Assembly (NCBI GenBank): GCA_964448955.1
Contig: CAYUXT010000004.1
Coordinates: 36,346-100,345 of the forward strand
Direction: 5' to 3'
DNA: 64,000 nt
Origin: an uncultured Taibaiella sp.
GTDB lineage: Bacteria; Bacteroidota; Bacteroidia; Chitinophagales; Chitinophagaceae
Shown: in pieces, positions 2,125 through 38,616 of the stretch
How the letters are laid out: the number at the start of each line of letters is the position of its first letter
Position numbering within the stretch: the stretch's first letter is position 1
Translations under genes and position numbers: made by a program
Notes under the pieces: model-generated
Database searches by the model: none
What the model was told of the DNA's origin: nothing
The model's input: only the letters and a program-made list of their open reading frames with translations

Positions 2125-2233
2125 TATAAATCTTTTATCAAAAGTAAGCGAACCGATTGCTTGCAAAAAGGACTACATCTCGTCCTTTTTTAGAAAGAAA
2201 AACCTACTCACATTGCAAAAAATAGCAATAATT

Positions 2234-5200
2234 ATGAGCGTACGTACAGACATTGTTAATCTGCAAGTAAACATCAATGGCGATAAATCTAAAAACGAGC
2301 TAAACCAACTCCGCAAGCGAGCAGCAGACCTAAGCTCCGAAATGAAAGGGCTTAAAAAAAATACAGACGAGTACAAGCGAAAAGCCAACGAACTCAAAGC
2401 GGTAAGGGACCGTATGGCTGAGCTGCATAAGCAAATAGGGCTTACCTCTATGTCTCAAAGAGAATTGGTAAATGAGCTAAAAAAGCTGCAAATGCAGAAA
2501 AATATGCTTACACCACAAACTAAAGAATTTAACGAACTCCAAAAAAGAATAGATGCAGTAAACAAGCGACTTAAAGAAGTGCGTACAGGTGCATTTGGCT
2601 TTAAGCAAGCAATGGCGGGCATTAAAACCGAAGTAAAGCAATTCGGTATGTTAGCCGCAGGCTATCTCGGATTCGAGTTTATTACAGGGCAGTTTCGCAA
2701 CCTTATTAATGTACAGATGAAGTACGCCGATAGCCTTGCCGACATTCGCAAAGTTACCGGAATGACAGAGCAAGAAACCAAAGCCCTTGCAGGAGCATTA
2801 AAGCAGATAGATACCCGTACCAGCAATAGCAACCTAAGAGAAATGGCAGTAGCAGCAGGTAAGCTCGGTATTGCCAAAAACGAAATACTCGGGTTTGTAG
2901 AAGCAGTAGATAAAATAAATGTAGCACTCGGCGACGACCTTACTGGTGGCACTGAGGAGATAATGAAAAAGCTGGGTAAGATAGTACAAGTATATGGAGT
3001 AGATAAGATGGAGGGGCTATCCGAAGGATTACTCAAGGTAGGTAGTGCTATTAACGAACTGTCAGCGTCGAGTTCTGCATCTGCCGATTATATGGTAGAG
3101 TTCTCTAAGCGTATGGGAGGTATATCGCCATTGGTAGGTATGAGCATACAAGAAATATTAGGGCTTGGTGCTACATTGGACCAGTTGGGGCAAACGAGCG
3201 AGGTAAGCAGCACCGCATTAAGCAAGATGTTTGTAAAGTTTGCAAAAGATGCAGATGTATATGCAAAAATGGCGGGCATTCCGGTAAAAGAATTTAGAGA
3301 AATGCTCGAAAAAGACTTTACCGGAGCATTTATTACCGTATTAGAAACGGTAGGCAAAACTTCTAATGGCATTAACCAGTTAGCTGCCACACTTGGCGAC
3401 TTGGGTATGGACGGCGGCAGAGTTATAGGTGTGCTCGGTTCGTTAGCAAATAATACAGAAATATTAATAGAGCAGATAGAGATAGCCAACGATGCTTACG
3501 AAGAAGGTACAAGCATTACCGATGAGTTTATGATAAAGAACCAAAACTTTGCTGCCGTAGTAGATAAGCTCGGCAAGGAGTTTAATAAGTTCTTTACCTC
3601 CGATACTATTAATAAAGGAGTGCGCAAATTGGTTATGCTTATGGTCGATTTCCTTAATGGACTTAAAGCTACTGCCGAATGGATAGGGAATAATAAGACG
3701 GTAATTACATTATGGAGTGCTGCCATAGTAGTACAAACAGGGGTTATAAAAAAGGCGTATTTAGCTATATTAGCTTATGCTTCTGGCATTAAAGGAGCAA
3801 CTGTAGCACAAGCACTTAATACATTAGCAAGCAAGGCAGATATAGTTGCTACAACTGCATTAGGAGTAGCTAAAGCACTATTGACTTTAAATATTACTAA
3901 ATTAAGGCAAGAATTTAGGTTGCTAACTTTAGCAATGGGCACTAACCCATTAACTGCCACCCTTGTAGTTGTGGGCGCATTAATACTTGCTTTCAAAGCA
4001 TTAAGTAAAGAAACCGACAAAATAAATATTAAACGCGCAGAAACTCTTGGCATAGAAAGAGAAGCTGCAAGGCAAATGTCCGAAATTATTAATAAGCAAA
4101 ACGTAAATATAGCTCTGCTCAAAGATGAAACAATAAGCGTTGGCTCAAAGGCTAAAGCATTAAAAGCATTAATTGACCTTGATCCGCAATACCTTTCAGG
4201 CTTAACGGAAGCTAATATTAAAACAGGGCAAGGGATAAAGCTGCTCGCTAAATATAATGAGCAGTTAAAGCTAAAGTTGCAAATAGAAGCCACAGGCAAT
4301 AGGGCAACTAAAAAAAGAGAGGAAGCATTAAATTATACAGAACTATACGAAGATTTAGAATATGCAATAACAAGTGGAGAGGGTTTTGACTATTCTCGAA
4401 TTTCTAAAGAGATATACGATAAAGCGTCTAAGAATTTAGGCATTAGCCTTGTTGGCTCTAAAGATGCTGAAAAGCACAAAAAAGAAATGGTTAAAATCAT
4501 TAAAGATTATGCAGATAAATCTATGAAAGAGTTTCAAGAAATTGGAGAGCAACAAGCCGCTAAAATAGAAGAAGAAACAAAAATGCAAATTGATAGAGTT
4601 AAAGAAAATATTGACGCATTAGAAAACCAATTAAAAGCACAAGAGGAAGGCACAAAAGAATACAGAGAAATAAAATCGAAAATAAACAAAGCAAATAAAG
4701 AATTAACAAGATTAACTACAGGAGTAATAGATGATGATAATAAAAATTACGGTGGTAGTTCCGGTGATGACGATAAAGCCAAGAAACTTAAAGAAAAACA
4801 AGATACCATAAAAGAAAAAATTGCATCGCTTTTAAGAGAAGTAGAAGCTATGGAATCCGATGCCGAGCGCAACGATGGCAGAAGAGACGAAAGAGAAATA
4901 GCTCGTGTAAAAGAAAAGTATGCTAAGCTAATACAAGAAGCCGTAAAGTACGGTATAAGCGCAGCAGAGCTCACAGATGCACAAGAGCGAGAACTCGCCA
5001 TACTCCTTGCTAAGCAATTTAAAGAGCAAGGAAATAAAGAATACAAAGAATCGCTACAAAATTTAGACGACTATCTCGCCAAAGAGAAAGATACCGTAAT
5101 GCAGCAATACGCCGACGGTATTATTAATAAGCAAGAGTTTGAAGATGCGTTAGAAACACTCGAAAGGCAAGGTATAGAAGCAAGAATAAACATTGCCAAC

Positions 5201-6484
5201 GATTATATAGATACCGCAGCACAAGCCGAAACAGACCTCCAAAAAGCTAAAACAGATGCAGTACAGAAAGGTATTGCAGATAGAGAAAAAGCCGAAGCCG
5301 AAGCACAAAAAGCAGAAGAAAGACGGCAAAAAAATAAGTTGGCAGGCTTAGAACTGAATGTATTAACAGCCAAGCCCGGTAGCAAAAACAGGTTAAATGC
5401 CGAAAAGGCTCTCCTCAAATCGCAGATGGAGCAGGAGCTTGAAAATATAGAGCTTACTGAAAACGAAAAAGAACTTATCCGCGAAAAGTACCGACAAAAG
5501 GCGGCAGAAGCAGACGACAACCACGTAAAAGCACAAGCCGAAAAGATACAGCAGGTAATGCAGGTATTGAGCAATGTAGCCAATGCCTATTCTTCTTTCG
5601 TTAATATGCAAAACACCAAAGACGAAAACGAATTAAACCAATATAAGGCACGCAACAACGAAAAAAGAGAAGCACTTCGCAAAAGATTAGACGACGGTAA
5701 GATAAGCCAACAGCAGTACGATAAAGCATTATCACAAATAGACGCCGAGGAAGATAGAAGAAATAAAGACTTTGAGGCTAAGAGACTAAAAAGAGAAAAA
5801 GCAGCCGCTACATTTAGTGCTACTATTAATACTATAGCAGGGGTAGCACGTGCATTTGCTGATTACGAGTGGCCATATTCTTTAATAGTAGGAGCAATAG
5901 TAGGAGCGGCAGGAGCTATCGAAATTGCTAATATTAATGCCAAAGAGGTACCACAAGGACGTAGGGGCTTAGTAGTTCAAGGACCATCGCACGAGCAGAA
6001 AGGTATAGATATGGTAAATAACCAAACAGGAGAGCGAATAGCCAATATAGAAGGTGGAGAGCCTGTAATGGTGCTCAGTAAAAATACATACGGCAACAAC
6101 AAAGATGTAATAGATGAGTTGCTGTACAACAGTATGCACCGCAATGGAGCGCGTATTAAAGCGGCTAATTGGTACGGCGCAGCGGTACCACATGTTAATG
6201 CCAATGCCTTAGTTCCGGTAATGCGCAATGGCGGTATGGTAACACAGCAGCATACAAATACTACTGCCACAGCAGAGCAGACAGCAAGTGCAGCGCAAGC
6301 CTACCAAAGCAACGAGCTACTTAAAGAAATGATTAATGCACAATATGCCCAGATAGACGAAATGCGCAAAAAACAAGATAAGATACAGGCTTATGTAAGT
6401 TTGCAGCACTTCTACGACCAGCAAAGCCTACTCAATAAAGGAAAAAGCCTTTCGGGTATCAACCAAAAACAAAAAAGAGCTTAG
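2234..6484 (+). CDS. phage tail tape-measure-like protein (TP901-type core region plus long Lys/Glu/Ala coiled coil)
   Basis: 1423-aa track ORF. Position 2213 is a TTG; the first ATG (MSVRTDIV) is at 2234. The N-terminal third (ADIRKVTGMTEQE...AVAAGKLGI...FVEAVDKINVALGDDL...MVEFSKRMGG) resembles the tape-measure core. Hydrophobic segments follow, then about 600 aa of coiled-coil-like sequence, and the C-terminus carries GPSHEQKGID. Confidence 0.75.
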   Translation: MSVRTDIVNLQVNINGDKSKNELNQLRKRAADLSSEMKGLKKNTDEYKRKANELKAVRDRMAELHKQIGLTSMSQRELVNELKKLQMQKNMLTPQTKEFNELQKRIDAVNKRLKEVRTGAFGFKQAMAGIKTEVKQFGMLAAGYLGFEFITGQFRNLINVQMKYADSLADIRKVTGMTEQETKALAGALKQIDTRTSNSNLREMAVAAGKLGIAKNEILGFVEAVDKINVALGDDLTGGTEEIMKKLGKIVQVYGVDKMEGLSEGLLKVGSAINELSASSSASADYMVEFSKRMGGISPLVGMSIQEILGLGATLDQLGQTSEVSSTALSKMFVKFAKDADVYAKMAGIPVKEFREMLEKDFTGAFITVLETVGKTSNGINQLAATLGDLGMDGGRVIGVLGSLANNTEILIEQIEIANDAYEEGTSITDEFMIKNQNFAAVVDKLGKEFNKFFTSDTINKGVRKLVMLMVDFLNGLKATAEWIGNNKTVITLWSAAIVVQTGVIKKAYLAILAYASGIKGATVAQALNTLASKADIVATTALGVAKALLTLNITKLRQEFRLLTLAMGTNPLTATLVVVGALILAFKALSKETDKINIKRAETLGIEREAARQMSEIINKQNVNIALLKDETISVGSKAKALKALIDLDPQYLSGLTEANIKTGQGIKLLAKYNEQLKLKLQIEATGNRATKKREEALNYTELYEDLEYAITSGEGFDYSRISKEIYDKASKNLGISLVGSKDAEKHKKEMVKIIKDYADKSMKEFQEIGEQQAAKIEEETKMQIDRVKENIDALENQLKAQEEGTKEYREIKSKINKANKELTRLTTGVIDDDNKNYGGSSGDDDKAKKLKEKQDTIKEKIASLLREVEAMESDAERNDGRRDEREIARVKEKYAKLIQEAVKYGISAAELTDAQERELAILLAKQFKEQGNKEYKESLQNLDDYLAKEKDTVMQQYADGIINKQEFEDALETLERQGIEARINIANDYIDTAAQAETDLQKAKTDAVQKGIADREKAEAEAQKAEERRQKNKLAGLELNVLTAKPGSKNRLNAEKALLKSQMEQELENIELTENEKELIREKYRQKAAEADDNHVKAQAEKIQQVMQVLSNVANAYSSFVNMQNTKDENELNQYKARNNEKREALRKRLDDGKISQQQYDKALSQIDAEEDRRNKDFEAKRLKREKAAATFSATINTIAGVARAFADYEWPYSLIVGAIVGAAGAIEIANINAKEVPQGRRGLVVQGPSHEQKGIDMVNNQTGERIANIEGGEPVMVLSKNTYGNNKDVIDELLYNSMHRNGARIKAANWYGAAVPHVNANALVPVMRNGGMVTQQHTNTTATAEQTASAAQAYQSNELLKEMINAQYAQIDEMRKKQDKIQAYVSLQHFYDQQSLLNKGKSLSGINQKQKRA

Positions 6485-7571: not shown

Positions 7572-8120
7572 TTATTTAGTTTTATCTTCCGGATATGATA
7601 CTTCTGTATTAACTTTATCCTTATATTGTTCATAGAACGTTTTTACCATATTTATGTTTTGATGGTCTATTGGAGTTAAAATTTGAATGTTAAGTTTCAT
7701 TTCGCCATAAACTATATAATGAGTATCAAAGTTATCTAAATTGCTGCTTAAAAATTTACTATAAGCAGAATACCTTTTATTATCTTCTTCGTTTTTTTTA
7801 TCAATATCGTTAGACGCATGAAAAGCTAAAGCACAAATACAATTATTTTCATTTTGGTAAATTTTGTACACGTACAAACAAGCTCTGAAAATATGTAAAA
7901 CATGCTGCCCAGAATAATTATATCTTAAATTAAACTTAACTTTGTCGTTGCCACTATCTTTAGTAAAAAAAGATATATTGCATATATCGTAATCAAAAAT
8001 ATCAAGATATATAATAGTAGAAACTTTTGGTTTTACATAATCATACCTATAAATAAGCCTTGATTTAAAATACTCTTTATCCTTAGGCTTTTCCTTCATA
8101 ATGAATGTAAGTCCATCCAT
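7572..8120 (-). CDS. hypothetical 182-aa protein; candidate toxin partner of the upstream Panacea-domain protein
   Basis: Track ORF starting 4 nt downstream of the DUF4065 gene, on the same strand. Lys/Asn/Tyr-rich (MDGLTFIMKEKPKDKEYFKSRLIYRYDYVKPK...). No motif I can place. Confidence 0.5.
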   Translation of the reverse strand: MDGLTFIMKEKPKDKEYFKSRLIYRYDYVKPKVSTIIYLDIFDYDICNISFFTKDSGNDKVKFNLRYNYSGQHVLHIFRACLYVYKIYQNENNCICALAFHASNDIDKKNEEDNKRYSAYSKFLSSNLDNFDTHYIVYGEMKLNIQILTPIDHQNINMVKTFYEQYKDKVNTEVSYPEDKTK

Positions 8121-8124
8121 TTAT

Positions 8125-8643
8125 TTAATGATATGATTGATAGTGCCCAAAAGAATTAAGCGAATTTGCCCTTGGTATGGTGCCAAAATATGTGAGTTTA
8201 AAATCTGAAGTGGTATCAGAGTTTATTTCAATAACATTATCACTTGGCTCATTTGTTAAGCAACCTAATCGACTGTTAATCCAAGGTAATTCATTATGCG
8301 TTAAATCTACTAAATCTGCTCCGCTTAGATGCCCATAGGCATTCCATACTTCATTTAAATGATTTTGAACATGTGAAGGTAGATGAGCACTGTATATAGA
8401 GTTAAGAATTCTTTTCGGAATTATATCGCTACGCCGCATATATCTAAAGTAATTCCAAACATCTTTAATAACAGGTCCATAAATCCAAGCTTGGATTTCA
8501 TTGTTAAAAAGAGTATGTCTATGTTTAACAAAGTACCAAACCTGTGTATAGTAGAGTAATTTATGTAGCTGCAAAGGTGTTACTCCCTTATTAATAAAGA
8601 AGGGAGCAATACTAAGAGCGTTGTATTTATGAAAGATAGACAT
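8125..8643 (-). CDS. DUF4065 / Panacea-domain protein (SocA/GepA-like, putative PanA antitoxin)
   Basis: 172 aa. The core LQLHKLLYYTQVWYFVKHRHTLFNNEIQAWIYGPVIKDVWNYF matches the remembered DUF4065 pattern (KLQKLLYY..gw.l......lf.e.feAW..GPV....Y). Confidence 0.7.
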   Translation of the reverse strand: MSIFHKYNALSIAPFFINKGVTPLQLHKLLYYTQVWYFVKHRHTLFNNEIQAWIYGPVIKDVWNYFRYMRRSDIIPKRILNSIYSAHLPSHVQNHLNEVWNAYGHLSGADLVDLTHNELPWINSRLGCLTNEPSDNVIEINSDTTSDFKLTYFGTIPRANSLNSFGHYQSYH

Positions 8644-8868: not shown

Positions 8869-9120
8869 CTATTCCGTCCTTATCATTAGCCACTCCAAAG
8901 TTAGCGGTCTTATTTCTACATAAGCATATTTTTTTTCGTGTAGATACTCTATAATATCTACTTGGTTATAATCTGCCGACGGAAACTCTAATTGTAATTT
9001 TTCGAAAAGCTCTAAAGAAGCAAACCTTACTACACCATCTCCCATAGTATATGCAGGCTTATAGTGTTTATCTAAAAATTGAAATGCCCTATTGCGCATT
9101 GTAATTGTATGTTCTGCCAT
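8869..9120 (-). CDS. hypothetical protein
   Basis: 83-aa track ORF, 12 nt downstream of the AntA-like gene. No motif recognised. Confidence 0.4.
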   Translation of the reverse strand: MAEHTITMRNRAFQFLDKHYKPAYTMGDGVVRFASLELFEKLQLEFPSADYNQVDIIEYLHEKKYAYVEIRPLTLEWLMIRTE

Positions 9121-9853: not shown

Positions 9854-10774
9854 TTAATAATTTATACTTTTCAAAAAATCTTCTTCCGATAATATTTCAA
9901 TTTCAATGCCCTGTTCTTTAAGTTGTAGTGCTCTTTCTTGCTTATTACTCATCCCATCATCACCTACTATCCTATAGTCTTGCTGTCCAACAATTAAGAA
10001 ATTAGTTTTTTTGCTTACCGAATTAGAATTAATACCACCAATGTCTGCTATAATTTTCTGTGCTTCCGGTCTGCTCATCGAGCTTAATAATCCTGTAAAT
10101 ACAATAGATTGTTGATAAAATATACTTTCGCTATCAAATTTTGTAGGGTCGCCTTCAGGTGGCAATAGCTTTTCATAATTTCTTTTTCTTTTTGTAGTAG
10201 CTGGAGTGTATCCATTGGAGTATAATTTGCCTATTGTTGTTTCTAATTTGGCAGGTATATCTTCTTTACAATTTACCCCCATTTTATCAAAAGCAATTAA
10301 GCAAAGCTGTGCTAAAACTTCTGAATCTGGGGCTGCTCTATGTACTCTTCTCGGTAAATTATTAGCTTTGCAAAGTGTTTGCAAATCAAATGAAGCGGAA
10401 TTAGTCCATATTTTTTTAGAGAAAATATAACTGCAAGTATAATCCAATTCGGGATATGGCAAACTATATGTATTTAGTGTATGCCGTAATACACTAAAAT
10501 CGAAGGCAGCATTATGAGCTATTAATAGATTGCCCTCTATTAATTCTTTTACTTCGTCCCATATTTCAGAAAATTCTGGTTTATTAGCAACGTGAGTAGC
10601 GGTAATGCCGTGCAGTAAAGAATTAAAGTAATCAAAGTCGTTAATGTATGGTTTTATTAACCAAGATTTTGTTTCAATAATCTTGTTATTATCAACAAAA
10701 GTTAAGCCTAATTCGCAGGCAGAATTGCGCCGATGCTGACTTGCTGTTTCAAAGTCAATTGTAATAAATTTCAT
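9854..10774 (-). CDS. DnaQ/DEDDh-type 3'-5' exonuclease fused to a C-terminal BRCT domain
   Basis: 306 aa. Exo motifs: FITIDFETAS (Exo I), LIAHNAAFDFSVL (Exo II), HRAAPDSEVLA (Exo III, DEDDh). The C-terminus SIVFTGLLSSMSRPEAQKIIADIGGINSNSVSKKTNFLIVG is BRCT-like. Confidence 0.75.
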   Translation of the reverse strand: MKFITIDFETASQHRRNSACELGLTFVDNNKIIETKSWLIKPYINDFDYFNSLLHGITATHVANKPEFSEIWDEVKELIEGNLLIAHNAAFDFSVLRHTLNTYSLPYPELDYTCSYIFSKKIWTNSASFDLQTLCKANNLPRRVHRAAPDSEVLAQLCLIAFDKMGVNCKEDIPAKLETTIGKLYSNGYTPATTKRKRNYEKLLPPEGDPTKFDSESIFYQQSIVFTGLLSSMSRPEAQKIIADIGGINSNSVSKKTNFLIVGQQDYRIVGDDGMSNKQERALQLKEQGIEIEILSEEDFLKSINY

Positions 10775-11781: not shown

Positions 11782-12546
11782 ATGCAAGCAGTTCAACTGG
11801 TTATGAATTATAACCGAAAAGTAACAACTACATCAAAGCTAATAGCAGATGCTTTTGAAAAAAGACATGATAATGTCTTGAGGGATATTCAAAATTTGGA
11901 ATGTTCCGATGAATTTAGACTCCTCAATTTTGAGGAGTCCTCCTATATAAATAGTCAAGGGAAAAAAATGCCATTTTATTTCATTACAAGAGATGGATTT
12001 ACTTTATTGGTAATGTCCTTTACTGGTACAAAGGCTACAAAATTTAAAGAAGCTTTCATTAAGCAGTTTAATTTAATGGAAGAAGCCTTACGAAATCAAG
12101 AAAAGGAAAGAACGCCTAATCTTATCCCAACTTATCAGCAACGCATATTAAGCGAGCCTACCAAATCGTGTCCGGACGATAGATGGAATATATTCGACCA
12201 ATCGCACGAAATTATGCTATTTGTAGAAAAGCATATAGGGAGCGTAAATAAATTCGACTTAGTTGATGGAAGCATCGGCAGGCTCTGGAGTATTTATAGA
12301 AGAGACAAAAAGTGGGCGACAGTTGTTACCCAATATTACCATCACTATAAAGATAAAAGAGGTAAGCAATTGTCTAATTGTTATGATTATTCAGAATTAA
12401 AGTATTTTAAAATTTGGCTTAAAAACGATTATAAATTATATCATTTAGGAGATTATCTAATTAATAAATTTAAAAAAGAAAAAAACACAAGGCTGTTAGA
12501 AAAAGCTAATAATCTAATGCCAACAATGCATAAAAAAGCAAGTTAA
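11782..12546 (+). CDS. Rha-family phage regulatory protein
   Basis: 254 aa. The N-terminus VTTTSKLIADAFEKRHDNVLRDIQNL...FYFITRDGFTLLVMSFTGTKATKFKEAFIKQFNLME matches the Phage_pRha pattern from memory. Confidence 0.7.
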   Translation: MQAVQLVMNYNRKVTTTSKLIADAFEKRHDNVLRDIQNLECSDEFRLLNFEESSYINSQGKKMPFYFITRDGFTLLVMSFTGTKATKFKEAFIKQFNLMEEALRNQEKERTPNLIPTYQQRILSEPTKSCPDDRWNIFDQSHEIMLFVEKHIGSVNKFDLVDGSIGRLWSIYRRDKKWATVVTQYYHHYKDKRGKQLSNCYDYSELKYFKIWLKNDYKLYHLGDYLINKFKKEKNTRLLEKANNLMPTMHKKAS

Positions 12547-12570: not shown

Positions 12571-12605
12571 AAAAATAGGGTTGCATTATATGTAACCCTA
12601 TTTTT
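12571..12605. terminator. bidirectional terminator between convergent genes
   Basis: AAAAATAGGGTT-(11 nt)-AACCCTATTTTT: a 12-bp stem with A- and T-runs, between the Rha gene (+) and the 94-aa gene (-). Confidence 0.55.
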
Positions 12606-12889
12606 TAATTAGGCTCCCAATATTCAATTTCATTAGTATCTAAAAATAGTTTTTCACTTAAAGCATTAACCATATCATTTAATTTTTTATCCTCTTCAGC
12701 CTTAATTTCTGGTGGTGTTTCCGGTAAATCTTCACCTATATTTCCTTCAAAATTATCAGGTTGCCAAAAATTAATAGTGTGTAGTCCTTCATAATAATCA
12801 TCTGGTAATAATTCTTCCAGAATAAAACATTTATTATCAAATTCGAGTTTATTAAAATCTTCTTTAGTTATTCTCTTTTTTGTAGCCAT
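12605..12889 (-). CDS. hypothetical acidic protein
   Basis: 94-aa track ORF, Asp/Glu-rich. No motif recognised. Confidence 0.4.
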   Translation of the reverse strand: MATKKRITKEDFNKLEFDNKCFILEELLPDDYYEGLHTINFWQPDNFEGNIGEDLPETPPEIKAEEDKKLNDMVNALSEKLFLDTNEIEYWEPN

Positions 12890-13158
12890 AAAAGTATATT
12901 AATTTAAATTAACACTACGAAAGTAAATAAATATTCAATAATTAGTATATACACTCCATTGTTGATGTTATATTTCAACTTAATATTTCAAACAATTATA
13001 AATACTTTATTTATAAATAAATTTCACTTTTTTATATAAATCAGCTAAAAGTCATTGTTTTGGCACAAAACAAATAAATAAAACAATAATGACTACACTA
13101 AAAAAACAGCAAAAAAAATTTTCTTCGAAGTCAAAATCCTGAAATTAAAGATTCGTCT

Positions 13159-13468
13159 ATGGAACAAATGGAACAACGGCAACAAAACAAGTATTTAATA
13201 TATAAGATACTTATTTTCAATGATAAATATTTTATATAATTATAGTATAAACAAAAAAAGCCGTTGTTTTTTGTTCCATTCTGTTGCCATAAACCAACAT
13301 TAGCTAAAAACATATTATAAATAAAAATAACGATTTTGGAACAAATAGCAACAGAAAGCAACGGATTTTTAGCTTTTTTTCTATTATTTTTTATTATTAT
13401 AATATAGTATTATCAATACTTTTGTATATATCCTTAATAGTCTGTTGCCATTGTTCCATTTGTTCCAT
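13159..13468. repeat. 26-bp inverted repeats bounding an AT-rich segment with GGAACAA / GCAACA iteron-like motifs
   Basis: ATGGAACAAATGGAACAACGGCAACA (13159-13184) matches the revcomp of TGTTGCCATTGTTCCATTTGTTCCAT (13443-13468) at 25 of 26 positions. GGAACAA or its complement occurs at 13161, 13170, 13271, 13338, 13451 and 13460. GCAACA/TGTTGC occurs at 13179, 13282, 13348 and 13443. Confidence 0.75.
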
Positions 13469-13565
13469 AGCCAAAAACGAAATTTGGAAAAAAAATAGGG
13501 TTCTTTAAAAAAAAACGAAAAAATGTAAATTTATCATAAGTAAATAAAGAATAATAATAAAATAT

Positions 13566-13595
13566 AAAAAGCACAGAAATTTTTCTGTGCTTTTT
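13566..13595. terminator. intrinsic terminator downstream of the replication operon
   Basis: AAAAAGCACAGAAA-TT-TTTCTGTGCTTTTT hairpin flanked by A/T runs, 81 nt past the stop of the 60-aa ORF on the minus strand. Confidence 0.55.
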
Positions 13596-13675
13596 ATTAG
13601 TTATAAATAGTGAAATAGCAAATGTATTGATTTCAAAATTTAGCTATATCGTTAAACAGCAAATATGTTGTAATG

Positions 13676-13858
13676 TTAAATATACTCTATAACAACTGCC
13701 GAAGTAATCATATCATCTGTAATATTATCTATATCAGTTAAATCTTTTGCCTTAACGGTAGCAACTACCACATAGTCATATTCTTCACCCTGCTGAATCA
13801 TAACTTCACTTTCAGGATCTTGCTTTTTTAGTAGTTCTATTAATTCTTTTACTTTCAT
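13676..13858 (-). CDS. hypothetical small protein
   Basis: 60-aa track ORF, 24 nt downstream of the 778-aa gene, same strand. Confidence 0.35.
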   Translation of the reverse strand: MKVKELIELLKKQDPESEVMIQQGEEYDYVVVATVKAKDLTDIDNITDDMITSAVVIEYI

Positions 13859-13882: not shown

Positions 13883-16219
13883 TTAAAAAGGAGTAGGTTT
13901 ATTATCCCCTTTAATATTTTGACCCGATTTCCATTCATTATTATCTACTTCATTATTCATATCGCTATTAAATATCTCAATCTTATAGCGCTCTTGTATT
14001 ACCTTGTAATTAAATTCAGTAGTCCAATAAGAAGCATTCCCCATTCTTTGCTTGCTTTCGCCTACATATACTTGTTTATCATTTTGTAAGTATTGTATTA
14101 AAGTAGATCTGCTTAATACATTATTATCGTTGCGCATTCTAAGCTCTTTAAGGTAGAGTGGGTAAATGTCTTGTATCTTAATATATATATTGTCCGGATT
14201 GCTATTATTATACCTGTATGCTGTACCAGGTGCAATAAGTCTAAGGCTTGCAAGGTTCTCCACCACTTGCCAGAACTTACCAAGGTCATCATTACCTTCC
14301 ATAATATTAAATTGAGCATCAAGGTTTTCAATTAATATTCTGTCAAATAAAATCTCTTTAAAATAGTCGTTATTAGGGTTAAGCAATGGAGATAATAATT
14401 TATTGGTAGTACTGAGTATAGCTATGTTCATTATAAATCTATCATCTATTTCTTTTCGAGTTTTTTTAAAAAAATCAGATAGCTTATTCTCAAACAAGGA
14501 TTTAAACTCCTTAGTCATTACATTTCTTAGCTGTAATATTTCGGAAGTAATATTACTGATGTTGTTATCTTCAAGGCTTTTAAGTTTTTGGAAATTCTTT
14601 TTATCTGTGTCGCTACGGTCCTTACCCGGTTTAAAACTGAGCATTATGCACCGAGAAAAAAGAGCGGGTTCTATCGTTGGCATTTCCTGTCCCGAAAGCA
14701 TACAAGCACTATTTACCGGAATGGTTTGTGTTTGCAAATCGTTTGTCATTTTAGCTCTGGTGTAAGCCTTACCGTCATAAATCTCTTTTAAAGCAGCTAT
14801 AAAAACCTGTTTAATATTATTTTTATATTCGTTAAGCCACACCACGCCATTACGGTATTGTGCAAACTTTCTCTGAAACCCTTTCGGGGTAGAAGTACTT
14901 TCAAGCCCTACGCCTTTTTGCGGTTGTCCAAATAAAGAAATTAAGGAGTTTGCAAAAGCATCTTTACCCGAACCCCTTTGTCCTTCAAGATTAAGGATAG
15001 GCGTTGCTCTAATATTTGGCATACTATATATAATATCTCTAAACATTGCTGCAAGAGTCCATATAATACCAATCGAACCATTTTGTGCCCCATACACTTT
15101 AAGGAATAGGTCGGACCACTCATTATATTTAATGGTACCGTCGTAGTTATATAAATATCTCTTTTCGTCTTCGTATAGAGCATCTTTATCGGCGAACATT
15201 TTACTGTATGCAGGAATGAAGTAATTTTTATCTTTAAATTCTACAATACCGTATTCGTCAATGGGATAAAATGTATTACCGGTTTTCTTTTCTGTATCGA
15301 TTAATCCGTTAGCCCAAGCCCAAAATTTATATCTTGGGCTATATCCGAGTGTATCAATAAGTGTGGTAGGCTTTTCGTTTTTTTGCAAAAATTCCAATAA
15401 TCTGGAAAGATCTGCATCATTTCCTTTAAAAATAAAGTACCCTTGACGTTGCAGTATTTTTTTAAAATTTGCAACGCTAGTCATTTCGTCTGTGTTTACG
15501 TTAATGGTTCTTTCTATCCCTTCTGTATTTTTAATTACAATAAGTCGATAAGCAGCAATATCCGATGTATCGACGTGGAAAAGTATCCGCATTGTAAAAT
15601 TACTGATGTCATCATATACGCCTTTATTATTACGCGAGTAGTATCTGCCTTTATAGGCATAGATACCATAATTAAGCACATCAGAAGTATCGCCGTCGAA
15701 GTCGCCAGGAAGTCCTAAATCTTCATTACGAAGTTTATTCATTTTACCGGTTCGTTCCATTTCCTTTTTTGCAGCAGCTTCTTTTTTATCTATATCTTCT
15801 TTGATATAGTTTTTCAACTCAGCAGCCGAAAGTTTAGGCAGGCAAAGAGCGTTGAGTTCAAGGAGCAGAGAATATTCTCTATCATATAGTTTTTTTTGCG
15901 CCAGGTATTCGGTAGATTGGAGCTTACCTTTATCTTTTATTTTATTGAGTATAGCTTCAATGGCATCAATTTTCTTTTGTTGCGCCTTAACGTTGTTTTC
16001 AGCTTTTTTAGCATCGGCAGTAAAAGTTTCTGCGATGCGGTTTATGTAGCTATCTTTTTTAATATTATTACCTATGCAGTTGAGCATAAGTAATAATTTT
16101 TCGACACAAAATATTTGGTCGTCAGGAGTTTTCGCTTCGTTCCATATACGTTGCGCTTTCCACATTACTGCATCTTGGTGCAGCGATTTAAAATGTTCTT
16201 TAATATTAATCATCATCAA
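13883..16219 (-). CDS. phage/plasmid replication protein, SF3-like P-loop NTPase (primase-helicase class, tentative)
   Basis: 778 aa. Walker A-like NLEGQRGSGKDAFANSL, Walker B-like GVVWLNEY, and then SACMLSGQEMP...PALFSRCIML. The N-terminal ~170 aa are coiled-coil-like. No primase motif was identified by eye. Confidence 0.55.
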   Translation of the reverse strand: MMMINIKEHFKSLHQDAVMWKAQRIWNEAKTPDDQIFCVEKLLLMLNCIGNNIKKDSYINRIAETFTADAKKAENNVKAQQKKIDAIEAILNKIKDKGKLQSTEYLAQKKLYDREYSLLLELNALCLPKLSAAELKNYIKEDIDKKEAAAKKEMERTGKMNKLRNEDLGLPGDFDGDTSDVLNYGIYAYKGRYYSRNNKGVYDDISNFTMRILFHVDTSDIAAYRLIVIKNTEGIERTINVNTDEMTSVANFKKILQRQGYFIFKGNDADLSRLLEFLQKNEKPTTLIDTLGYSPRYKFWAWANGLIDTEKKTGNTFYPIDEYGIVEFKDKNYFIPAYSKMFADKDALYEDEKRYLYNYDGTIKYNEWSDLFLKVYGAQNGSIGIIWTLAAMFRDIIYSMPNIRATPILNLEGQRGSGKDAFANSLISLFGQPQKGVGLESTSTPKGFQRKFAQYRNGVVWLNEYKNNIKQVFIAALKEIYDGKAYTRAKMTNDLQTQTIPVNSACMLSGQEMPTIEPALFSRCIMLSFKPGKDRSDTDKKNFQKLKSLEDNNISNITSEILQLRNVMTKEFKSLFENKLSDFFKKTRKEIDDRFIMNIAILSTTNKLLSPLLNPNNDYFKEILFDRILIENLDAQFNIMEGNDDLGKFWQVVENLASLRLIAPGTAYRYNNSNPDNIYIKIQDIYPLYLKELRMRNDNNVLSRSTLIQYLQNDKQVYVGESKQRMGNASYWTTEFNYKVIQERYKIEIFNSDMNNEVDNNEWKSGQNIKGDNKPTPF

Positions 16220-16312
16220 AAAAGAATTTTATGCTACTTTTGCTAACTTAATCCATTCAAGTAATTTAATGCTCAAAAGTTCGGTAGCTTTCCCGTGAGG
16301 GGTACAAAAACT

Positions 16313-37740: not shown

Positions 37741-38307
37741 ATGCTAAAACTAATAATACCAAGTTCTATTATCATTCTTTTAGCCTGCAACTTTGACAAA
37801 AAGAATGAGCAGACAATCCATTTGCAAAACTCAAATAATGTAATTTCTGACACAACAAATCTAGAAATAAGACTTACAGCAAAATTTAATTCATTTGATA
37901 CAACTATTGAAGTATTATTTACAGACACTAAAAAAACTATTGGTGATAAACAAAAGGAAAATTTTGAAAATTTCGTTTTAAAGCAAGACTTGTTGACTAC
38001 TGAAATTCTTCAAATAATATTTGACTTTTACAAAAGGTCTTATGCTGACTATAAAACCGGTTGGACATTGATTGGACAAATAAGCGATGAAGAACTTGAA
38101 AAACACTTACCAACGCCAACGACACCTGAAAATCTAAAACCTTATATAACCCCAGTAATTATTCATATTCAAAATGAAAAAGAATGCAAGGATGGTACCT
38201 TGGGAATTGAATTTGACTGCACTTGGGATATAGAAAATGGACTAGGAGTTTTAATTAAAGACTGGAAAGTGGTTGAGGCAAGTGTCGCAGAAATTTCATA
38301 CTTCTAA
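37741..38307 (+). CDS. hypothetical lipoprotein
   Basis: 188 aa. MLKLIIPSSIIILLAC has a lipobox-like LLAC. No other motif recognised. Confidence 0.5.
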   Translation: MLKLIIPSSIIILLACNFDKKNEQTIHLQNSNNVISDTTNLEIRLTAKFNSFDTTIEVLFTDTKKTIGDKQKENFENFVLKQDLLTTEILQIIFDFYKRSYADYKTGWTLIGQISDEELEKHLPTPTTPENLKPYITPVIIHIQNEKECKDGTLGIEFDCTWDIENGLGVLIKDWKVVEASVAEISYF

Positions 38308-38616
38308 ATTTGAATAACCATTACTTGCCAACAACATCGTTTCCTTTATAAAACACAATTCCTCTATAGAAGGTAAATAAATAATTTTATATGTCTCCCA
38401 GTTTGGAGGGTGGTAGATTTTTCCAATATTTTTTTTAACTGAAAAAAGCCCCTAAAAGTTTTTTTCTTACTTTTATTATGGACATCTATTCCGATATATA
38501 ATTTATTGAAGTATGTTTTTTTGTATAATCACATTACCATTCTTTACATTCACAAATTGATTGCTAAAATGTTTTAAAAACTTAGTAACTTCGTAAGCAA
38601 ATTAAATTTTTAAAAA

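Follow-up and report, generated by a model that had tools for sequence, protein, structure and literature searches.

Positions 13152-13475 of a 64,000-nucleotide stretch of contig CAYUXT010000004.1 (hereafter the window) form a repeat array that is probably the replication origin of a tailed prophage, with the 778-aa DUF927 AAA+ helicase encoded beside it as its initiator-helicase. We favour this reading because the published paradigm of the Staphylococcus aureus pathogenicity islands (SaPIs) matches it point by point. As described in passages of PMC9371898 and PMC7581432, which cite Ubeda et al. 2007 for the SaPI origin work, those origins lie immediately downstream of rep and contain 6-12 iterons; their centre is AT-rich, and two or more iterons stand on each side of it in opposed orientation. 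In the same passages the origin is bound by the C-terminal winged helix of Rep, a self-loading helicase that probably acts as two hexamers. A first-pass annotation of the window had offered a SaPI-like iteron origin 3' of the initiator gene as one of two hypotheses for this block, and the comparative and structural evidence presented here supports it well.

The block and the helicase operon whose 3' end it follows contain these features:

13159..13187, plus strand: iteron cluster 1, the outer left arm (ATGGAACAA ATGGAACAA CGGCAACAA, 9-bp spacing)
13188..13257, unstranded: AT-rich spacer 1, a putative unwinding element (89% A+T; degenerate box TTTTCAATGATAA)
13258..13290, minus strand: iteron cluster 2, inner (minus-strand reading ATGGCAACAG AATGGAACAA AAAACAACGG, 10-bp spacing, the third degenerate)
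13291..13334, unstranded: central spacer of 44 bp (82% A+T; dyad centre of the palindrome near 13313)
13335..13366, plus strand: iteron cluster 3, inner (TTTGGAACAA ATAGCAACAG AAAGCAACGG, 10-bp spacing)
13367..13440, unstranded: AT-rich spacer 2, a putative unwinding element (86% A+T; holds ATCAAT at 13411-13416, within TTATCAATACTTTTG)
13441..13468, minus strand: iteron cluster 4, the outer right arm (minus-strand reading ATGGAACAA ATGGAACAA TGGCAACAG, 9-bp spacing)
13597..13564, minus strand: intrinsic-terminator-like hairpin that ends the helicase operon (15-pair stem, then a T-rich tail)
13676..13858, minus strand: 60-aa open reading frame (ORF) between the helicase gene and the terminator
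13883..16219, minus strand: 778-aa DUF927 AAA+ helicase, the putative initiator (Rep; 777 aa if translated from the ATG at 16216)

The block holds 12 G(G/C)AAC(A/G) iterons, one of them degenerate, a number within the range of the SaPI origins. They fall into four clusters of three with 9-10-bp phasing, oriented forward, reverse, forward and reverse along the block. Clusters 1-2 and clusters 3-4 each bracket one spacer of 70-74 bp (86-89% A+T), and the block thereby contains two modules of the SaPI type, each with an AT-rich centre and at least two opposed iterons on either side. The first-pass annotation had described 26-bp arms matching at 25 positions, and the sequence confirms this: ATGGAACAAATGGAACAACGGCAACA (13159-13184) and the reverse complement of 13443-13468 are identical at 25 of 26. 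Its motif counts were also accurate, with six copies of GGAACAA (three on each strand) and four of GCAACA; there is in addition one GCAACG. A repeat search lengthens the arms to 33 nt (13152-13184 and 13443-13475, 91% complementary, 258 nt between them), and these arms are the outer two of the four clusters. The same search detected a second, inner inverted pair that was absent from the annotation (13255-13285 and 13340-13370, 31 nt, 77%). When the halves 13152-13313 and 13314-13475 were aligned as reverse complements, the score was 54, compared with a shuffle mean of 5 (maximum 20.5) and 23.5 for a direct-repeat alignment. Because the halves align far better as reverse complements, we describe 13152-13475 as an imperfect 324-bp palindrome. 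The inverted duplication of the iteron/AT module, the equal triplets and the mixture of GGAACA and GCAACA variants are particular features of the window's array.

These repeats are real and far beyond chance. TGGAACAA occurs nine times in the 64-kb window against 2.5 expected, and six of the nine copies lie inside 13160-13467. Ten G[GC]AACA sites fall within 320 bp, compared with a maximum of six in 300 Markov simulations, and the best inverted repeat exceeds in length those of all 300 simulations of the intergenic region. By nearest-neighbour energy, spacer 1 (from 13189) is the least stable 70-bp stretch in the whole window and spacer 2 (from 13369) is the fourth least stable. Like the anatomy, this significance was observed directly. 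No DnaA boxes were found in 12890-13675 at up to one mismatch, an Rfam scan gave no score near any gathering score, and sigma-70-type promoter matches showed no excess over chance.

The position of the array is also that of a SaPI origin. It is located 208 bp beyond the final ORF in the helicase operon, just after the terminator, in agreement with the earlier statement that the block lies immediately past the terminator of the replication gene operon. Since the hairpin at 13597..13564 terminates that operon, read-through into the array should be limited. No homologue of the 60-aa ORF upstream of the hairpin was found among the ORFs of the related loci described below.

We used structure prediction to characterize the 778-aa protein, for which Pfam yielded a weak DUF927 match and PHROG yielded 'DNA primase' families that match through the helicase part. 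A profile search of PDB sequences gave P-loop-level matches only. The AlphaFold model, built with 29 homologues, has a pLDDT of 83.9. From the N-terminus onward it shows a helical region, a beta domain, an AAA+ core with its Walker A motif at G412-K418 and, at about 660-745, a winged-helix-like C-terminal domain. In Foldseek its best match is the helicase Cch (5dgk, E 2e-12) of the staphylococcal cassette chromosome mec (SCCmec), and its second is SaPIbov1 Rep (8tch, 'initiation of replication protein with helicase activity', E 1e-10). Both matches have a TMt of about 0.6 across about 600 columns. Poxvirus D5/E5, SaPI5 PriRep and papillomavirus E1 helicases follow further down. The 'SF3-like' label given to the gene in the first-pass annotation was therefore approximate: SF3/D5-type proteins are among the matches, but the best fold matches are to self-loading DUF927 helicases, Cch and SaPIbov1 Rep. 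The kinship of the predicted fold to known initiator-helicases is seen directly in this comparison. When the C-terminal 180 residues were modelled alone, they formed a helix-helix-beta-hairpin unit (pLDDT 83) with weak Foldseek matches (E 0.03-0.3, TM 0.5-0.6) to winged-helix DNA binders, namely TcpK bound to oriT, Cdc6/ORC winged-helix domains, SaPIbov1 Rep, the PU.1 ETS domain and RTP.

According to the first-pass annotation, a lack of the repeat architecture in homologous islands would speak against both of its hypotheses; the array recurs at most homologous loci. Single-protein searches in genome and viral contigs retrieved no related loci. A homologue alignment retrieved 19 genome loci, and exact-protein look-ups added more, for a total of 27 loci with the window included and helicase homologues at 29-54% identity. 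An array of the same design lies downstream of the helicase gene, in the same direction of transcription, at 21 of the 27 loci; two loci are cut by contig ends, which makes it 21 of 25 informative loci. The relatives usually have three forward iterons at 9-bp intervals, then 30-60 bp of AT-rich spacer and five to six reverse iterons at intervals of 8-10 bp; L021, L022 and L023 have multi-cluster arrays resembling that of the window. Five of the loci were retrieved as a test once this pattern had been put forward, and the array was present in every one. When all ORFs of 22 loci were compared, the helicase was the only family common to nearly all of them, and the genes on the far side of the array differed between loci. 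The distance from stop codon to array spans 17 bp (L150) to about 3.9 kb (L021). At L150 (3901-7297), a separate DnaG-type primase gene is followed by the DUF927 helicase gene and then by the array 17 bp past the stop codon, which is the same pri-rep-ori order as in SaPIs. The conservation of these arrays beside homologous helicase genes is a direct observation.

At least three isolated phages with distant helicase homologues also bear arrays. Flavobacterium phage vB_FspS_laban6-1 has a TCTCAAC array in the 276-bp gap that directly follows gp52, its primase-helicase gene, at record positions of about 38200-38355. A phage of Porphyromonas gingivalis has 12 copies of CCTACAA, and Microcystis phage Mea-Yong924-1 has nine copies of TCGGACA. 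In more distant homologues of the helicase, a DnaG-type primase is fused to the N-terminus. Multi-cluster TGGAACA arrays are also present in viral contigs that have no homologue of this helicase:

L094, 8576-8810
L128, 4870-5180
L035, 1450-1850 (the same as L039)
L130, 7170-7540
L085, 12020-12400

At L094 the array begins at the 3' terminus of the helicase gene in an unrelated pair, in which a PrimPol gene is followed by one for a D5-type SF3 helicase. No similarity was found between the C-terminal domain of the 778-aa protein and this D5-type helicase with the same iteron. The 18-mer ATGGAACAAATGGAACAA matched more than 120 viral contigs, mostly unrelated, and no helicase homologue was found in the fetched contigs that bear it.

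In eight relatives, a small and strongly hydrophobic protein (69-107 aa) is encoded directly after the array:

L004, 3046-3294
L009, 3771-4019
L011, 9211-9453
L012, 3829-4152
L013, 7815-8036
L148, 10474-10686
L149, 5442-5657
L152, 4756-4965

This protein is absent from the window, where an unrelated acidic 94-aa ORF takes its place, and we do not regard it as a candidate iteron binder. A possible kinship between the 169-aa ORFs of the window and L004 was likewise rejected; the two are unrelated.

As in SaPIs, the iterons are element-specific, and this too was observed directly. At least eight iteron cores occur under one architecture, among them:

TGGAACA: window, L005, L007-L009, L011, L012, L148, L150-L152
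TAGAACA: L006, L013
TCGAACA: L004
TGGACA: L014, L019, L149
TAGTC: L015, L021
GTCAGAA: L022
GGTTTAC: L023

L015 and L021 have in common both the TAGTC core and a putative recognition helix, EKYLESD (LDKATLEKYLESD). Among the loci compared first, a single alignment column separated TGGAACA from TAGAACA elements: W732, part of the beta-hairpin 'wing', with W in 7/7 of the former and Y in 2/2 of the latter. The nearest relative of each TAGAACA element is a TGGAACA element (82.9% and 74.9% identity), a pattern that implies two changes of independent origin. In L005 (7122), L007 (6493) and L008 (7103), the codons of the conserved TLEHYL helix (TTG GAA CAT) contain TGGAACA, so that one isolated iteron copy falls within the helicase gene near its 3' end; this is probably a coincidence.

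The spacers of these arrays share a sequence of their own. ATCAAT is the 6-mer found in the largest number of them, 13 of 18 spacers, whereas shuffled sequences gave 1.5 on average and 6 at most, and it was also present in four of the five later-fetched loci and in phage laban6-1. The spacers that bear the box are those of the window, L004, L005, L007-L009, L011, L012, L014, L015, L019, L021, L023, L148, L149, L151, L152 and L144. The box is present irrespective of iteron type and has the consensus aAaaATCAATnatTTatA. The consensus of the architectural protein IHF is WATCAANNNNTTR, which eight of the 13 box copies fit. In the window, the box TTATCAATACTTTTG (13409-13423) takes in most of TACTTTTG (13417-13424); ATCAATACTTTT recurs in L005 and L148, and the L004 counterpart is ATCAATACTTTC. 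Speculatively, the box may be a site for a host architectural protein, or it may indicate where melting or priming takes place.

Several results weigh against the array being an origin fired by this helicase. Four loci (L003, L010, L016 and L018) have no array within 5 kb of the helicase gene, and L003 is the closest helicase relative, at 54%. The arrays of some relatives are 2-4 kb away, with methyltransferase, ParB-N or HNH genes in between; at L148 and L149, it is ParB-N/HTH_ParB proteins that are encoded between helicase gene and array. L035 and L130 are unrelated viral contigs whose TGGAACA arrays are separated by 2-3 kb from large-terminase genes, and the fetched flanks of these arrays contain no homologue of the helicase. 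No primase domain was found in the 778-aa protein, and its C-terminal winged helix is a weak assignment drawn from a predicted model and E-values of 0.03-0.3. When the position-732 rule was tested on five additional loci, recognition by that one residue had to be rejected, as H, M and Q accompany TGGAACA and G accompanies TGGACA. Across the aligned proteins, Y at 732 goes with TAGAACA in 2/2 elements versus 0/11 TGGAACA elements, which is suggestive and no more. As a separate observation, the array-less L003 has, downstream of its helicase gene at 8918-9102, three copies of TGACTTACA and two stretches separated by 68 nt that would pair as a perfect stem of 13 bp (GTAGTCCCCGTTA / TAACGGGGACTAC); this region may be a structured RNA or another kind of site.

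The other hypothesis of the first-pass annotation was an inverton, in which the 26-33-bp repeats would be recombinase sites and the 258-bp segment would flip a promoter toward or away from the 94-aa gene to the left of the array. Inverted repeats suitable for this are present (33-nt arms, 91% complementary, 258 bp apart), a single TAnnTTTG lies within the segment, and there is no minus-strand TAnnTTTG between the array and the start of the 94-aa gene. However, the arms are built of iterons that recur inside the segment, and homologous arrays have unequal arms (three versus five to six copies) around spacers of 30-60 bp. No tyrosine or serine recombinase (Phage_integrase, Resolvase) was found among the 40 window ORFs scanned, although one encoded outside the window could still act in trans. 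Orientation was compared in two contigs from different samples, both of which are in the orientation of the window; three further contigs carry the same protein. The TAnnTTTG box TACTTTTG is indeed at 13417-13424. The motif is no commoner in the window than chance predicts (119 occurrences, 108 expected), this copy is part of the ATCAAT spacer box conserved in relatives (ATCAATACTTTT), and a flip would leave it some 310 bp away from the start codon. Inversion would also do little to the layout of the block, which is a near-palindrome. The flipped junction had no matches in Joint Genome Institute (JGI) metagenome contigs, a search that is uninformative on orientation because the native-junction control is absent there as well. 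We regard an inverton as hardly credible.

Clustered, oriented repeats are generic protein-binding arrays, and the block could in principle serve the helicase in autoregulation or copy control ('handcuffing'), act as an operator for a Rha/BstA-type protein, or be a centromere-like partition site. A Rha/BstA-like DNA-binding protein is encoded 600 bp away, and the ParB-N/HTH_ParB genes of L148 and L149 lie between the helicase gene and the array. Yet among the proteins compared only the helicase co-occurs with arrays across loci, and the Rha/BstA and ParB-N genes are missing from most loci that bear one. The DNA between the clusters is extremely AT-rich in every array, a property that an operator as such would not need, and the window's array is found at the 3' end of the helicase operon, behind its terminator, and not at its promoter. 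The prophage is integrated, and no ParA gene was seen among the window ORFs scanned. Such a non-origin role is unlikely. Still less probable is a packaging signal of the pac or cos-like kind, to which the small subunit of the terminase would bind. Several relatives have their arrays at the junction of replication and head genes (L004), and the proximity of the L035 and L130 arrays to large-terminase genes would fit as well. But the window's array is surrounded by accessory and regulatory genes and adjoins no terminase or head gene, arrays track the helicase gene across varied contexts, and that of L094 comes directly after a PrimPol and D5-helicase pair. The non-origin and packaging explanations each have some circumstantial support at a few loci, but neither accounts for the constant link to the helicase gene or for the extremely AT-rich cores.

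If the block is an origin, its function can be sketched by analogy with SaPI Rep and ori, from which we infer iteron binding, melting and origin activity. After induction, the helicase would be expressed from the operon that starts near the prophage end, and its C-terminal winged-helix domain would bind the G(G/C)AACA iterons. With the iterons spaced one helical turn apart, the copies within a triplet would face one side of the DNA. Two opposed clusters flank each AT-rich spacer, and helicase rings might assemble on either side, melt the spacer and self-load. Priming could come from host DnaG or from a phage primase encoded beyond the window; no primase gene was identified in the part of the prophage within the window. 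The long outer inverted repeat would exist because the iteron/AT module is inverted-duplicated in this prophage.

It is conceivable, though on balance doubtful, that the array represents an undescribed, widespread origin class of Bacteroidota tailed phages that also occurs in a Microcystis phage. As a joint proposal, this class would be defined by convergent 7-mer iterons in helical phase, which a DUF927 (or primase-fused) helicase would recognise through its winged-helix tail, and by an iteron-independent ATCAAT(N4)TTR IHF-like box that would recruit a host architectural protein or set the point of priming or melting. The window's copy would then be an inverted-duplicated version of the class, a 324-bp palindromic double origin.

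The element that carries the block had been called an island, which is imprecise: it is a tailed prophage of roughly 49 kb that ends at 16305. Window positions 1 to about 16305 are one arm of it, and the remainder lies beyond the left edge of the window. Two public contigs from different samples (SRR16798008 and SRR16797981), one of them 48.9 kb long, are 100% identical to the window across 3.8 kb. Both stop exactly at 16305, 86 bp upstream of the first codon of the helicase (16219), and for this reason we place the prophage end (attachment, or att, junction) there. Host genes follow, including dus (dihydrouridine synthase, 16374), genes for proteins sorted by the type IX secretion system (T9SS), gldD and others. 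Besides an AntA-like gene, the prophage arm contains the following:

2213-6484: tape-measure gene
7572-8120, minus strand: 182-aa ORF with no family match, 4 bp beyond the SocA/Panacea gene
8125-8643, minus strand: SocA/Panacea antitoxin-domain gene
9854-10774, minus strand: gene for a fusion of a DEDDh (RNase T-type) exonuclease with BRCT
11782-12546, plus strand: Rha/BstA-like gene (254 aa; N-terminal Rha domain, BstA-like C-terminal part)
12605-12889: acidic 94-aa ORF, to the left of the array
13056-13074, unstranded: perfect 8-bp palindrome TTGTTTTG-GCA-CAAAACAA, 85 bp outside the array toward the 94-aa gene

The SocA/Panacea gene and the 182-aa ORF (7572-8643, minus strand) may be a toxin-antitoxin pair. 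The DEDDh-BRCT protein also matches the PADLOC candidate defence family PDC-S48. The Rha/BstA-like protein matches BstA in PADLOC (E 1.4e-12) and the PHROG family 'BstA abortive infection system, replication inhibitor', and its gene, 600 bp from the putative origin, is likely to be a prophage abortive-infection gene. The idea that the block is a BstA 'aba'-type self-immunity site was dropped because arrays occur in elements without BstA. The palindrome at 13056-13074, which the first-pass annotation had also noted, might represent two weak iteron-like sites or serve the 94-aa gene as an operator.

These results offer a concrete pair of origin and initiator for temperate phages of Flavobacteriia/Bacteroidota. 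Small replicons and shuttle vectors can be derived from rep and ori modules of this kind, for a phylum whose genetic tools are limited. The occurrence of TGGAACA and TAGAACA at 75-83% protein identity provides a natural series for studying how a winged helix reads its site, and the conserved spacer box suggests an additional shared component of origin firing. For scans of the inverton type, the window is a reminder that an inverted-repeat signature can stem from a replication origin.

Among known systems, the closest likeness is to SaPIbov1 and SaPI1, in which the origin is also 3' of the initiator-helicase gene and opposed, element-specific iterons surround an AT-rich centre. The initiator there is a self-loading AAA+ protein with a C-terminal winged helix, a domain that in the window's protein is predicted from the model. 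The differences are equally clear. The window's element is a tailed prophage of about 49 kb from a Bacteroidota (Flavobacteriia-like) bacterium and not a Staphylococcus satellite, and its iterons are 7-mers in triplets with 9-10-bp phasing. It has two iteron/AT modules as a 324-bp palindrome together with the ATCAAT spacer box, and no primase gene is adjacent in the window. Between SaPI Rep and the 778-aa protein sequence similarity is undetectable, and the fold alone is similar.

The best structural match (5dgk) is the MCM-like helicase Cch of SCCmec, which has DUF927 in common with the 778-aa protein. According to the passages on Cch2 in PMC7581432, the intergenic region that follows the gene of this protein holds a putative origin with direct repeats to which Cch2 binds; those passages report only three iterons and describe no inverted clusters around an AT-rich centre. 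SCCmec is also another type of element in another host phylum. The alpha protein of satellite phage P4 is a helicase with a C-terminal winged-helix origin-binding domain. It also has a primase domain, and its helicase is of SF3 type. Its type I iterons (TGTTCACC) occur in both orientations at two sites, ori and crr, that are kilobases apart. The likeness to P4 alpha thus lies in a multidomain helicase with a C-terminal winged helix and in short repeats in both orientations, and the difference in the primase domain, the SF3 helicase and the separation of ori from crr.

Iteron plasmids and lambda O-ori resemble the window's array in having repeated initiator sites beside an AT-rich unwinding region. 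Their origins have tandem direct repeats of about 17-22 bp, an initiator that is not a helicase and often DnaA boxes, whereas the window has 9-10-bp units in inverted clusters and no DnaA boxes; the array is not of that type. The origins of SV40 large T antigen and papillomavirus E1, as mentioned in PMC7581432, are similar by analogy only, in that the helicase is its own initiator, short inverted sites lie by AT-rich DNA and a double hexamer is proposed. In those eukaryotic viruses the helicases are of SF3 type and the origin-binding domain is N-terminal to the helicase. A search of a collection of papers for origins in this Bacteroidota phage group found no description. The kind of system is already known from the self-loading initiator-helicases with iteron origins of SaPI, SCCmec and P4-like elements. 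What is new here is its documentation for a Bacteroidota phage and prophage family, together with the palindromic double module and the shared spacer box.

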